In this document: one piece after another, positions 22,916 through 31,965 of the stretch
How the letters are laid out: every line of letters begins with the position of its first letter
Position numbering within the stretch: the first letter of the stretch is position 1
NCBI GenBank assembly: GCA_965223265.1
Contig: OZ244999.1
Span: 160,001 to 224,000, forward strand
Reading direction: 5' to 3'
Source: Planctomycetota bacterium
Lineage (GTDB): Bacteria > Planctomycetota > UBA8108 > SXIK01
Length of the DNA: 64,000 nucleotides
The notes under the pieces: generated by a model
Databases searched by the model: none
Seen by the model: the letters and a program-made list of their open reading frames with translations, nothing else
What the model was told of the DNA's origin: nothing
Made by a program: the position numbers and the translations under genes

Positions 22916-23227
22916 TTAGGATCCTTGAAAGCTGCGTTGCTCCGCATCGGGAATCGCGCCTCCTTCTCCCTCTTCGCCTTCGCGTTCGTCCTTCTTTGTT
23001 TTTTGAGGTGCTTCCGTGTCCCGGCGTTTCTCCGTCTGCTCTTCCGTTACGTGGCCTGTGGACGTTCCTTCTTCGCTTGCGCACTCGATCGTCTTGACTC
23101 CCAGCGACGACGAGCCGTTTTCGGCGGCCGCCTTCCGCTCTGCTTTCCTTCTCGCCTTTTCTTCGCGGCGTTCTCTCTTGGCTCGTTCTCTGCGGCGCTT
23201 TTCGAAGGATGGGTTTGATTTCGCCAA
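22916..23227 (-). CDS. Small highly charged (K/R/E-rich) protein
   Basis: MAKSNPSFEKRRRERAKRERREEK; AAGGAG RBS before TTG; ends 3 bp before desaturase 3. Confidence 0.65.
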   Translation of the reverse strand: MAKSNPSFEKRRRERAKRERREEKARRKAERKAAAENGSSSLGVKTIECASEEGTSTGHVTEEQTEKRRDTEAPQKTKKDEREGEEGEGGAIPDAEQRSFQGS

Positions 23228-24498
23228 GGCGCGTCTCCTTTCACTTGCTGCTTTCGTGTGCGAGCCCTCGTTGACCTCGAAGCGACACAGGTCACGACCG
23301 TCGGCGTCGGTTGCACATCGCTTGACTGGAGTTCCTCCGGCGTCCGCTCGACTTGGATCGTTCTTCTCGTCAGTTGTTCAATGGCTTGAAGCTGAGGTCG
23401 CTCGATGCTCGCGCAGAAGGAGATCGCCGTTCCCGGGGCACCCGCTCTTCCCGTACGACCAATTCGGTGCACATAGACTTCGGCGACCTCGGGGAGGTCG
23501 AGATTGAACACATGCGTGATGCCGTTGACGTCGAGGCCTCGCGCTGCGATGTCCGTCGCGACCAGCACAGAGACCTGACCTGATCGAAACTGGTCGAGTA
23601 CTCGCTGACGCTGGCCCTGGCTCTTGTTGCCGTGGATCGCCGCCGCCAACAGACCAACACGCTTGAGATGCTTCACCACCTTGTCGGCCCCGTACTTCGT
23701 GCGAGTGAAGGCGAGTGAACGATTGCCGGGCAGGTTTCGCAAGAGGGATGCAAGCAAACGCGGCTTCTGCTTCTTGCCGACGTAGTAAAGCGATTGTTCG
23801 ACGTCCTCCGCCGGTGTGGAAACCGGATCCACTTGAACGTGAACCGAATCCGTGAGCCATTCTTGCGCGAGCTCACGAATCTCGCGCGGCATCGTCGCCG
23901 AGAACATCAGAGTCTGGCGCTTTGCCGGGACCGTCTTGACGATGCGCTTCAGTGCATGAATGAAGCCGATATCGAGCATGTGATCGGCTTCATCGAGAAT
24001 CAGAATCTCAACGGCGTGAAGGCTCACGACGCGTTGCGCCATGAGATCCTCGAGTCGGCCCGGCGTGGCGACCAGGATATCCGCCCCGCGCTTGATCGCC
24101 TGAACCTGCGGACCCTGGCCGACGCCGCCATAGATGACGGTGCTTTTCAGCCCAGTGTAGCGCCCGTAAGCGCGGAACTTCTCGCCGATCTGCGCGGCCA
24201 GCTCGCGCGTGGGTGCAAGAACGAGCGCGCGGATCGAACGCGCTGGAACGAACCGGTGCCGTCGACCGTGTCCCCTGTGACGAGTCCGCGTGCCGTGGCT
24301 CCCTTTCAGGCGCTCCAGCGTCGGCAGGGCAAAAGCCGCCGTCTTGCCGGTGCCTGTCTGGGCGTTACCCATGAGATCCCGGCCCATGAGGACTTCGGGA
24401 ATAGCGCGGATCTGAATCGGGGTGGCTCGCTGGTAGCCTTCGGTATCAACAGCGCGAAGGACCTCCTCGGAAAGACCGAGATCGCAGAAATGACTCAA
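23047..24498 (-). CDS. rhlE: DEAD-box RNA helicase, RhlE-like
   Basis: Q motif TPIQ, AQTGTGKT, PTRELA, TPGR, DEAD, SAT, ARGLD, HRIGRTGRAG. Confidence 0.92.
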   Translation of the reverse strand: MSHFCDLGLSEEVLRAVDTEGYQRATPIQIRAIPEVLMGRDLMGNAQTGTGKTAAFALPTLERLKGSHGTRTRHRGHGRRHRFVPARSIRALVLAPTRELAAQIGEKFRAYGRYTGLKSTVIYGGVGQGPQVQAIKRGADILVATPGRLEDLMAQRVVSLHAVEILILDEADHMLDIGFIHALKRIVKTVPAKRQTLMFSATMPREIRELAQEWLTDSVHVQVDPVSTPAEDVEQSLYYVGKKQKPRLLASLLRNLPGNRSLAFTRTKYGADKVVKHLKRVGLLAAAIHGNKSQGQRQRVLDQFRSGQVSVLVATDIAARGLDVNGITHVFNLDLPEVAEVYVHRIGRTGRAGAPGTAISFCASIERPQLQAIEQLTRRTIQVERTPEELQSSDVQPTPTVVTCVASRSTRARTRKQQVKGDAPWRNQTHPSKSAAENEPRENAAKKRREGKQSGRRPPKTARRRWESRRSSAQAKKERPQAT

Positions 24499-24659: not shown

Positions 24660-24929
24660 CTACCAGCGCCCGCGTCCTCCGCCTCCATGCTGGCGCTCTC
24701 GTGCGACATTGACGTTGAGCGCGCGTCCTTCGAATTGGTGACCGTTCAGCGCCGCGATCGCCGCGTCAGCGTTTTCCATTTCGACGAAGCCGAATCCGCG
24801 GGGGCGTCCGGTGTCGCGGTCAGTGATGAGGTTGACGGAGTGGACCTCGCCGTGCTGCGAGAAGAGTCCTTGCAGATCGTCGGAGGTCACGGAGAAGGGG
24901 AGATTCCCCACATACAGCTTCTGAGCCAT
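24660..24929 (-). CDS. RRM RNA-binding protein with Gly-rich tail
   Basis: RNP2 LYVGNL, RNP1 RGFGFVEM, GGGGRGRW tail; AAGGAG RBS. Confidence 0.95.
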   Translation of the reverse strand: MAQKLYVGNLPFSVTSDDLQGLFSQHGEVHSVNLITDRDTGRPRGFGFVEMENADAAIAALNGHQFEGRALNVNVARERQHGGGGRGRW

Positions 24930-29771: not shown

Positions 29772-30095
29772 CTAATCGTCGCGACAGGCGGTGGCAACCG
29801 CGTCGCGCACCGACTCGTATTCGAAAGGATCGTCGGCTCGAAAGCGGAGGAATCGATTTGCGTGTGCGGTAACAGCTACGGATTCGACGTCGCACCAAAG
29901 GTCCCAGGACGGATTTCCTCCGGCCCCGTGTCGATCGATGACTTTCTCGAATCGATCAACGGCGTTGAAGAAGCCCTCTACGTCATCGATTGGCACGTAC
30001 GGGTCTGGCTCGTCGCCTAACCAATCGAAAAGCATCGCCGGAAACGTCGCGGAGTCCGGATGGTTCAACTGCAAGATTTCGATGTGGCCGCCCAT
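29772..30095 (-). CDS. Hypothetical protein, possibly frameshifted and continuing to 29557
   Basis: 107-aa acidic ORF; a protein-like tail continues in another frame. Confidence 0.5.
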   Translation of the reverse strand: MGGHIEILQLNHPDSATFPAMLFDWLGDEPDPYVPIDDVEGFFNAVDRFEKVIDRHGAGGNPSWDLWCDVESVAVTAHANRFLRFRADDPFEYESVRDAVATACRDD

Positions 30096-30221: not shown

Positions 30222-31367
30222 TCACGTTCCCTTGTACGTCAACAGTGGTCGAAGCCTCCGCACAGCACGCGTGAGCTCGCGCTGAGCGCGCATCACTTTC
30301 TCGATGTCCTTGTAACTGGCTGGCGCTTCCTCCCGCAGCGCCTTCCCGATTCGGTGGTCGAACCAAACACCGCGCATTTGACGTTCTAGATCCGTCGCGC
30401 CGATGGTTCGTCGTGCGTCTGAGCGGCTTAGCTGTCGTCCAGCGCCATGCGAACTCGAAGCGAGGGCTTCGGGACAGCCGCGCCCCTGAACGTGAAAGCT
30501 TGTCGTCCCCATTGATCCCGGAATGATGCCGATCTCGCCTGCTTGAGCGGAGAGCGCTCCCTTTCTGTGCACCCAAAGGTCAGAACCGAAGTGGCGTTCT
30601 CGCTGAACGTGATTGTGATCGCAAGCGATGCGCGACGAAGGGTTGGCGCTCGCTCCGAATAGCTCTCGAACGAGGAGGGTCGCGGCTTCGAGCATACGCT
30701 CACGGTTCGCTGCAGCGTATGCTCGCGCCCACTCGACGTCCCCAAGGTACGCCTGACCCTCGGTTCCCTGCGCATCGAGATGTCGTAGACCGACGGAGTC
30801 CTGCGTTGCGTATTCGAGATGATGCCCGGTGATCGCCTGCCCTACGGCGCGCGAGCCACTGTGGACCATGACCCACAGAGCGTCTTGTTCGTCTGCTTGG
30901 AACTCGAGGAAGTGGTTTCCGCGTCCCAGAGTGCCGAACTGTACGCGCCCGTCGCGATGCTTGAGTCGTTCGAGCCTCTTGTGACTCAGCGGAGCTTCAA
31001 CGAGTGCGGCTGGCAGGCACGCCGGTGCGGTCGAGCCTGAATGTCGACGAGCCGGGACAAGGACGCGGAGGGCATGAAGGATCTGTGCCGCCATGCGTTC
31101 GTTTCGGATGACGTCAGCGCTGCAATTGAACTCGAGAGCGGCCATGCCACAGCCGATGTCGCCCCCGACGGCGTGTGGCAGGAGCCTCGATGAAGTGGCA
31201 ACGACGGCGCCTACGCACACCTCTTCGCACAAGTGCACGTCGGGCATGACTGCAACGCGCTCAACGATCTCAGAGCGCGCGAGTCGATTCAGCGCGCCGA
31301 CGACATCATCGGTTAACGGGGCTGGGAGCCAGGAGTGCAACTTGCGACCGGAGAGTAGACGCGTCAT
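30222..31367 (-). CDS. rtcB: RtcB family RNA ligase (3'-phosphate/5'-OH)
   Basis: MPDVH, GGDIGCG, GTLGRGNHFLE, HSGSR, HNH, HRKGA, PGSMG, SHGAGR (guanylated His), EEAP..YKDI, YKG. Confidence 0.95.
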   Translation of the reverse strand: MTRLLSGRKLHSWLPAPLTDDVVGALNRLARSEIVERVAVMPDVHLCEEVCVGAVVATSSRLLPHAVGGDIGCGMAALEFNCSADVIRNERMAAQILHALRVLVPARRHSGSTAPACLPAALVEAPLSHKRLERLKHRDGRVQFGTLGRGNHFLEFQADEQDALWVMVHSGSRAVGQAITGHHLEYATQDSVGLRHLDAQGTEGQAYLGDVEWARAYAAANRERMLEAATLLVRELFGASANPSSRIACDHNHVQRERHFGSDLWVHRKGALSAQAGEIGIIPGSMGTTSFHVQGRGCPEALASSSHGAGRQLSRSDARRTIGATDLERQMRGVWFDHRIGKALREEAPASYKDIEKVMRAQRELTRAVRRLRPLLTYKGT

Positions 31368-31783
31368 GGTTTCACCTCCGCTGCGGCGCAGTACTCGAAG
31401 CAGAGAAGGGGTGCGCGCTTTCTGTGAATAGCGTTCGCTACTTCGGCACGTAGGCGCACTGAAATCGATTCGAGGACGCTGAGGACGTCACGCGATGCAA
31501 GTGAGGCAGACGGCGAAGCCGGACAGACGACGACTTTCAATCGCGACGCATCCGGCGCAGGTTCGACGCCGGCGACCTGCAGGTCGCGGAGGAGCGACTC
31601 GCGGGTTTCGGCAGCGAGGGCTAAGCCGATCGCGATTGCGGCCTGTTTGCAGAGCTGCTGTGTCTTTCGATTGTCCTTGCGATGGTATTCGTTGTGAAGA
31701 ATCTTGCGCGGATCGACCCCGTCGTCAGGGCCAACCTGGGCGCACAATGCTGCGAGTTCCTGTAGGGAGCGCTTTCTATGCAT
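31364..31783 (-). CDS. Ribosome-binding factor A (RbfA)-like paralog
   Basis: RbfA pattern LLRDLQVAGVEPAPDASRLKVVV...LRAEVANAIHRKRAPLLCF with an extra N-terminal LC...DDGVDPR segment; ATGA overlap with rtcB. Confidence 0.8.
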   Translation of the reverse strand: MHRKRSLQELAALCAQVGPDDGVDPRKILHNEYHRKDNRKTQQLCKQAAIAIGLALAAETRESLLRDLQVAGVEPAPDASRLKVVVCPASPSASLASRDVLSVLESISVRLRAEVANAIHRKRAPLLCFEYCAAAEVKP

Positions 31784-31787
31784 ACAT

Positions 31788-31965
31788 TCCTCTCACGTCG
31801 GCGAGTTGTCTTCAGACAGCTCGCCCGAGTTTTTTCGACAGCTCCCGTATCGACGGTGACACGTGGAGCATGGGCGTGAGAGCCTGCCCGAACACTCGGG
31901 AGATTCTCCGGAGAGGATACAGTGCAATCTCGTCTCGAAGCTGCGGGCGCAGGCTACGGCGAGAC
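31788..31965 (-). promoter_or_regulatory. Putative translational attenuator (anti-SD segments and hairpins)
   Basis: In the mRNA, CUCUCACG (31875-31882) and UCCUCUC (31911-31917) are each complementary to the RBS region CGUGAGAGGA (31788-31797). Hairpin GGCGAGCUGUC-UGAA-GACAACUCGCC at 31800-31825. Confidence 0.55.

Follow-up and report, generated by a model that had tools for sequence, protein, structure and literature searches.

The gene pair described here lies on the reverse strand of a 64,000-nt stretch (the window) of contig OZ244999.1 from a Planctomycetota bacterium (GenBank assembly GCA_965223265.1, positions 160,001 to 224,000). It joins a small, diverged paralogue of the ribosome-binding factor RbfA, named RbfL here together with its relatives, to a compact RtcB RNA ligase. 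RtcB enzymes join RNA ends carrying a 3'-phosphate or a 2',3'-cyclic phosphate to 5'-OH ends. The locus comprises the following features:

31784..31905, minus strand: conserved 5' leader of RbfL; the covariance-model match spans 31775-31905 (30.4 bits)
31364..31783, minus strand: RbfL, diverged RbfA paralogue of 139 amino acids (aa), recognised by Pfam, family profile, AlphaFold2 and Foldseek
31372..31379, minus strand: GGAGGTGA, Shine-Dalgarno sequence for RtcB within the coding end of RbfL, read from the sequence
31364..31367, minus strand: ATGA overlap of RbfL stop and RtcB start (translational coupling), read from the sequence
30222..31367, minus strand: RtcB RNA ligase, compact, 381 aa, recognised by Pfam and by alignment to solved RtcB chains

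The TGA of RbfL occupies 31364-31366 and the ATG of RtcB 31365-31367, the overlap that the first-pass annotation of this DNA had read. The same annotation had taken the 139-aa open reading frame (ORF) for a divergent RbfA-like protein outside the usual infB-rbfA-truB context, and both points held. RbfL of the window matched the Pfam family RBFA (PF02033) with 23.4 bits (E 7.4e-5), below the cut-off of 34.7 bits, and all 32 aligned relatives matched the family at E<=0.01 (best E 7.5e-9). A profile of the 32 relatives found as its best matches six distinct solved RbfA sequences, with E values from 3e-4 to 9e-3. The AlphaFold2 model reached a mean predicted local distance difference test score of 79, with values of 86-95 in the blocks that span residues 41-130; the N-terminal 40 residues were poorly defined. 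Foldseek returned solved RbfA structures as the best matches of this model (target-normalised template-modelling (TM) scores of 0.73-0.83), among them 7afq chain V (E 2.2e-6, target-normalised TM 0.80) and 2dyj (TM 0.82-0.83). The model thus predicts for RbfL the RbfA-type KH-like fold, a type-II KH-like alpha/beta arrangement, with a core of approximately residues 37-131. The canonical rbfA of the same genome (100 bits) is located at G000:C1:988493 just downstream of infB; therefore, the window gene is an extra copy, a paralogue, and not the only rbfA of the genome. The gene upstream of RbfL in the window is not infB, it codes for a 994-aa DUF7133/HEAT/cytochrome-c protein.

RbfL shares with canonical RbfA the fold (TM about 0.8), the basic clusters and the kinked helix pair with its AXG-like kink, all of them retained in the family. 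It differs by an N-terminal extension of about 40 residues with a near-invariant C14, the motifs DDGVDPR and RK.xQLC and two conserved cysteines, and by its genomic context, which is RtcB and a dedicated leader rather than infB-rbfA-truB, in coexistence with the canonical gene. The family is large: a word-indexed search yielded 217 proteins at E<=1e-3, and an exhaustive search of cluster representatives yielded 2324 at E<=0.001, 1646 at E<=1e-10 and 277 at E<=1e-30. The best 150 representatives have a length of 114-253 aa. Named relatives are annotated 'ribosome-binding factor A', and this plain label has hidden the separate role of RbfL. A shorter RbfL-like orphan of 97 aa was seen together with a canonical RbfA in the genome of another family.

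The partner gene matched the Pfam family RtcB (PF01139) with 276.5 bits. Alignment to the Pyrococcus horikoshii and Thermus thermophilus chains placed its residues D70, C73, H152, H169, H251 and H307 on D95, C98, H203, H234, H329 and H404 of the P. horikoshii enzyme, which we take to be the metal ligands and the guanylylated, nucleophilic histidine of RtcB. All six were invariant in 33 clade members, in agreement with the earlier statement that the motifs are complete. The active site is intact, and a GTP- and Mn-dependent joining of 3'-P to 5'-OH ends is predicted. Against TIGR03073, the model for RtcB2, the window RtcB scored 144.6 bits and stayed below the cut-off of 271.8 bits; the model was matched by 33 of 33 clade members at E<=1e-10 (best 6.1e-48), the cut-off comparison being made for the window enzyme only. 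Three RtcB modules are present in the genome, and the partner differs in each: archease, RtcA or RbfL. The two other modules are:

G000:C1:2989066-2993373 (L003): archease-RtcB pair, archease at 2.99 Mb
G000:C1:4810493-4814566 (L004): RtcA-RtcB pair with the genome's only RtcA at 4.81 Mb, followed by a SWIM/SNF2-domain protein

The first-pass annotation had listed rtcA, rtcR, prfH and archease as missing near the window RtcB. This was right for rtcA and archease, whose genes lie at the distant positions given above, and no PrfH was found above its cut-off in the genome; for rtcR, no search was made.

The pairing was surveyed in genomes (160 RbfL relatives found, 80 loci kept) and in metagenomes (212 relatives found, 80 loci kept, some contigs possibly duplicating the genome set). 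RtcB followed RbfL directly and on the same strand in 45 of the 80 genome loci, with 37-59 % identity to the window RtcB. With distances taken from the start codon nearest to the aligned RtcB N-terminus, the stop and start codons overlapped by 4 nt in 31 of these 45 loci and by 8 nt in 8; four loci had spacings of -1, -11, -26 and +14 nt, and two (L041, L052) were unsettled. A 4-mer core of the Shine-Dalgarno sequence preceded 38 of 42 RtcB starts, the full GGAGG 27 of 42. Among the metagenome loci at least 37 of 80 presented RbfL followed by RtcB; two more (L164, L171) had an RtcB just outside the thresholds, and seven of the 80 contigs ended too soon to judge the neighbour. The reverse test used an even sample of 301 Planctomycetota genomes, in which the RtcB clade was called at E<=1e-80. 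Thirty-seven genomes carried RbfL and 14 an RtcB of the window clade. By coordinates, 13 of these 14 RtcB genes directly followed an RbfL match, and the 14th, in genome G283, directly followed a more canonical RbfA-family ORF that reaches the Pfam RBFA cut-off (37.9-39.5 bits) and is devoid of the N-terminal extension, DDGVDPR included. Hence every sampled RtcB of this clade was preceded by an RbfA-family gene (14/14), and the conservation of the pairing, for which the first-pass annotation had proposed a neighbourhood survey, was observed from both sides. In the G283 locus (L092:1685-3194, contig G283:C84) the RtcB is 47 % identical to that of the window, and apart from the preceding ORF no RBFA match was found in this genome, which is 91 % complete; the ORF may be an evolutionary intermediate of the module.

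The genes flanking RbfL-RtcB are not conserved, except for one synteny block in Isosphaeraceae and a few small clusters; thus the pair travels as a unit. It was also present in three Sorangium genomes and in metagenome-assembled genomes (MAGs) of a Myxococcales, a Holophagaceae and an organism labelled Betaproteobacteria, and is thus conserved across families and phyla. The sampled genomes of the same family (two) and of the same order (five) yielded no RbfL. RbfL-RtcB is a sporadically distributed, self-contained two-gene unit, and the adjacency of its genes is far beyond chance. In a quick tree of RbfL the RtcB-linked genes occurred throughout with orphans interspersed, and many forks were unresolved. 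One locus (L052:4001-5596, plus strand) has RbfL and RtcB in a single open frame. It was rejected as a true fusion and attributed to a probable frameshift or assembly error, because the conserved C-terminal APxLxF motif of RbfL is lost. Co-folding of RbfL and RtcB ended with a score of 0.02 and returned no answer, speaking neither for nor against binding. A gene recurring just beyond the module was seen at four loci (L025:2859-4109, minus strand; L042:5655-6944, minus strand; L028:4491-5597, minus strand; L045:6451-7551, plus strand). Pfam identifies the L028 copy as a Band-7/SPFH protein; the grouping of the remaining three with this copy comes from BLAST only, and at least two of the four loci belong to one MAG.

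The sequence upstream of RbfL is unusually conserved, given that the proteins are only 40-50 % identical. The first-pass annotation had mentioned neither this leader nor the alternative partners RtcA, Rnl-type ligase and Ro60 described below. Across loci a short GC hairpin is followed by the block GGCTCTCAC, by variable hairpins (one or two) and by GTGAGAG (or CGAGAG) 4-6 nt before the ATG. The elements in the window are:

first in order: small GC hairpin
31873-31884, minus strand: block GGCTCTCACG
31800-31825, minus strand: stem of 11 bp, one of the variable hairpins
31789-31797, minus strand: complementary block CGTGAGAGG, ending 5 nt before the ATG

GAGAG occurred no farther than 25 nt from the start codon in 32 of 79 RbfL genes versus 10 of 350 other ORFs of the same loci. 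A covariance model was built from 32 leaders and searched in 648 kb. It gave 40 matches at E<0.05, all abutting the start of an RbfL gene, nine of them outside the seed and 17 at loci without RtcB. In the whole genome of 9.18 Mb the leader of the window was the only match better than E 0.4. Rfam 15 had no match to the window leader at E<=1, nor, at E<=0.1, any match in the six loci whose leaders were best. As RNA, the two blocks of highest conservation, GGCUCUCAC and GUGAGAG, are reverse complements. In the model-fitted alignment 73.9 % of the cells pair, versus 30-52 % in slid controls, and the covariation score of 0.163 compares to 0.06-0.09 in controls and was reached by none of 500 shuffles; the core pairs of CUCUC with GAGAG hardly vary. 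Leaders with their own blocks had an energy of -12.3 kcal/mol versus -11.7 kcal/mol with swapped blocks, and 212 of 5000 permutations were as low. RNAalifold predicted no consensus pairs on the model-fitted alignment, therefore the structure of the leader rests on the pair counts, which give the pairing of the two blocks moderate support. The leader is a candidate cis-regulatory RNA, specific for RbfL and probably structured. RtcB is preceded by a normal GGAGG, whereas RbfL has no canonical GGAGG. A role of the GTGAGAG block as Shine-Dalgarno sequence or as mimic of the 16S rRNA 3' end was considered and dropped, because only GUGA could pair with the 16S end, which in this genome reads ...GGATCACCTCCTTTCT.

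RbfL and RtcB very probably form a functional RNA-repair pair. For RbfL as the adaptor that brings the substrate or the ribosome to RtcB, the chances appear to be even. The best overall explanation, to which we assign a probability of roughly 0.5, is that RbfL is the RNA-recognition subunit of a coupled RbfL-RtcB repair operon. Broken RNAs of the translation apparatus would be found and held by the KH-like surface of RbfL and sealed by RtcB. The favoured target would be the 3' region of the 16S rRNA on the 30S subunit, a tentative choice with somewhat less than an even chance. After a ribotoxin nick, the 3' fragment could be kept in position by RbfL, a task in which PrfH helps differently in the RtcB2-PrfH pair. 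Expression would probably be gated by the leader, the paired blocks burying the region just upstream of the RbfL start until a stress signal opens them. In its furthest form this proposal describes a second, independently evolved ribosome-repair system, in which RbfL would attach to a damaged 30S subunit and retain the cut-off 3' portion of its 16S rRNA for re-ligation by RtcB, and a structured leader of a kind not described before would switch the module on, hiding the start region and sensing damage or stalling of the translation machinery; we hold this complete scenario to be doubtful. The 30S/16S reading is based on the homology to RbfA and on precedents for both proteins. The KH domain of RbfA fixes the 16S residues 1531-1536 in the exit channel beside the neck (PMC8177701). 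Sealing of the 16S 3' region by RtcB is described for the MazF-cut 3' end, which RtcB re-ligates (PMC5416887), and for colicin-E3-cut 16S rRNA, which is repaired by RtcB2-PrfH (PMC9304027, PMC13166195).

Several observations weigh against this reading. Contacts by which RbfA recognises the 16S 3' end are lost in RbfL. In E. coli RbfA Phe78, following the AXG motif, stacks on A1534 and C1535 of the 16S rRNA, and the loop between alpha1 and beta1 confers the specificity for the 3' end (PMC8177701). In RbfL the position that follows the AXG-type glycine mostly holds Arg instead of Phe (family consensus xG-R-LR), the window protein has V109-R110 with Val replacing the glycine itself, and of the DPR in the alpha1/beta1 loop only the Asp is kept. 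RbfL has no long C-terminal tail such as that found in the canonical RbfA of the same genome. No fused RbfL-RtcB was present among proteins of 245-2000 aa, which is weak evidence, and many loci are interrelated, so the pairing counts do not represent independent events. The first-pass annotation had cast the RbfA paralogue as an adaptor that holds damaged 30S subunits for ligation in place of PrfH. The fold, the paralogy, the conserved coupling and the lack of an accompanying PrfH, archease or RtcA support it in part; binding of RbfL to the 30S subunit, to 16S rRNA or to RtcB, and a replacement of PrfH, are inferred and plausible. In 35 of the 80 genome loci RbfL stands without RtcB (two of these contigs end too soon), and no RNA-repair gene at all adjoins it at 22 of the 80 genome loci and at about 28 of the 80 metagenome loci. 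In three Singulisphaera genomes, which have RbfL beside RtcA, the only RtcB is a distant one from outside the clade. RbfL thus has a role of its own, and the dependence is one-sided, of this RtcB clade on an RbfA-like gene and not of RbfL on RtcB.

Where RtcB is not the neighbour, other RNA-repair genes are found beside RbfL. RtcA adjoins it in nine of 80 genome loci, eight of them convergent and from one Isosphaeraceae clade, one divergent and from another lineage, and in six of 80 metagenome loci. Single cases are an Rnl-type RNA ligase (PHA02142 OB and RNA_ligase domains) directly downstream (L081:4596-5693, plus strand) and a Ro60/TROVE-vWA protein directly upstream of RbfL (L065:2139-3779, plus strand). 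Fifteen orphan metagenome loci had no recurring partner; NYN and EEP nuclease-family neighbours occurred once each, and the former is an NYN-domain RNase next to RbfL at L152:754-1578, plus strand. L006:5819-6685 (minus strand) codes for a conserved protein of roughly 290 aa with relatives in seven loci of Isosphaeraceae; its gene lies immediately upstream of RtcA where the latter is convergent to RbfL. This protein belongs to no Pfam family, and the Atlas clusters for it are from Planctomycetota and contain only the description 'hypothetical protein'. At five of the 80 genome loci, 4-21 tRNA genes form an array less than 4 kb away from RbfL, a context that favours tRNA as the substrate:

L021:62-2318, minus strand: 21 tRNA genes
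L029:97-3531: 10 tRNA genes
L028:6052-7648: 7 tRNA genes
L042:7218-7850: 6 tRNA genes
L025:4426-5048: 4 tRNA genes

These five loci come from at least three RbfL clades. In total, the RbfL loci contain 58 tRNA genes in 859 kb; the 64-kb window has no tRNA-gene array.

Given these arrays, tRNA has to be considered as a possible substrate. RbfL may be a cofactor for the repair of tRNA or other non-ribosomal RNA, presenting broken RNA to RtcB, or elsewhere to RtcA or the Rnl-type ligase, without the ribosome; it could also speed the turnover of RtcB as archease does. The arrays have a precedent in cyanobacteria, where long tRNA arrays neighbour rtcB, are co-induced under translational stress and are read as a tRNA-repair context (PMC8421152). 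The variety of repair partners (RtcA, Rnl-type ligase, Ro60) and the loss of the specific 16S contact residues agree with such a cofactor, as does the lack of an adjacent archease for the window RtcB, whereas another RtcB of the genome has one. However, 30S/16S binding is the sole known activity of the RbfA fold family, the arrays are confined to a small minority of loci, and the stems of a broken tRNA keep its pieces together, which makes the need for a holder less obvious. This alternative, and with it tRNA or another RNA as the substrate, appears rather unlikely to us. The loss of the 3'-end contacts and the tRNA-array context weaken the 30S/16S reading. RbfL could also be a stress-specific factor of 30S assembly or re-maturation that is merely co-expressed with RtcB, refolding the neck and the 3'-end region and handing over no substrate. 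Such a function would suit the RbfA fold, the occurrence of RbfL alone in roughly a third of the loci, the leader kept with or without RtcB and the separate housekeeping rbfA of the genome, but it leaves the RbfA-family gene directly upstream of all 14 sampled clade RtcBs unexplained, and the stop/start overlap in 39 of 45 loci suggests the matched expression typical of partners. We consider it improbable.

Another possibility is that RbfL acts chiefly as an RNA-binding regulator on its own leader, controlling itself and the coupled RtcB and not acting on damaged RNA. Autoregulation through mRNA mimics is common among ribosome-associated proteins, and the RbfL-specific leader has its complementary blocks near a start codon that is devoid of the GGAGG preceding RtcB. 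A pure regulator, however, would not need the whole RbfA core and the basic surface, which are under selection across phyla; the regulators of rtcB known so far are transcription factors, and binding of RbfL to the leader is hypothetical. As the chief function, regulation is quite improbable; it is compatible with the RNA-recognition subunit proposed above and not exclusive of it. That the adjacency is accidental and the small ORF an ordinary or decaying copy of rbfA could be suspected from the Pfam score of the window RbfL under the family cut-off. This is practically discounted by the conservation of pair and overlap in dozens of loci with differing flanks, by the 1646 cluster representatives matching the family profile and by the confident AlphaFold2 model; the 45/80 pairing, the overlap counts and the 14-genome reverse test already contradict it.

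The nearest known system to the proposed RbfL-RtcB operon is RtcB2-PrfH of E. coli ATCC 25922 and others. According to PMC9304027, PMC9223846, PMC13166195 and PMC6514570, it is also a two-gene unit, in which a compact RtcB paralogue is coupled to a small descendant of a ribosome-binding translation factor, with a sporadic distribution and a proposed function in sealing ribotoxin nicks in 16S rRNA. The partner there is a release-factor homologue, here a protein with the KH-like RbfA fold; moreover, the window RtcB is below the TIGR03073 cut-off and the genome has no PrfH above that of TIGR03072. The site expected for an RbfA-like partner would be the neck and exit channel of 30S subunits that are free or immature-like, rather than the A site in a stalled 70S ribosome. 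Archease-RtcB and RtcA-RtcB (rtcBA) resemble the module as combinations of RtcB with a small dedicated accessory gene, and both kinds are present in this genome; RbfL is unrelated to archease and RtcA, and elsewhere adjoins RtcA instead of RtcB. The cyanobacterial regulon of tRNA arrays and rtcB (PMC8421152) is resembled by those RbfL-RtcB loci that adjoin arrays of up to 21 tRNA genes, and differs in that the arrays occur at a minority of RbfL loci and not in the window.

Within the window, no third conserved gene belongs to the module. The 107-aa ORF downstream (29772-30095) has no Pfam family and is not conserved at other loci. Two other ORFs are found at a distance of about 6 kb: one carries a DEAD-box helicase motif (23047-24498, minus strand), and a small one looks like an RRM-type, predicted RNA-binding protein (24660-24929, minus strand), both read from the translation only; neither is conserved beside the module at other loci. 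There is no GC anomaly around RbfL-RtcB, PADLOC assigned neither protein to a defence family, and the plasmid and phage collections contained no RbfL relative at E<=1e-5.

Full-text literature searches found no publication on an RbfA-like partner of RtcB; the main RNA-repair survey (Burroughs and Aravind 2016, NAR 44:8525) is outside their coverage and may list the pairing. In PMC8421152 RbfA is named once, among ribosome-biogenesis factors and not beside RtcB, and the 2019 review of release-factor evolution treats only RFH/PrfH-RtcB (PMC6514570). RbfL-RtcB is a real and conserved module, apparently undescribed; both its accessory protein and its leader are new for an RtcB repair system. RtcB is widespread in bacteria, and its natural substrates and their targeting are known in few cases such as RtcB2-PrfH and rtcBA. 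An RtcB clade that was never seen without an RbfA-like gene thus provides a concrete hypothesis for substrate targeting. The RbfL-specific leader is a candidate for a new cis-regulatory RNA of a stress-repair operon, and, if the proposed function is true, a fold of ribosome assembly would gain a role in RNA repair.

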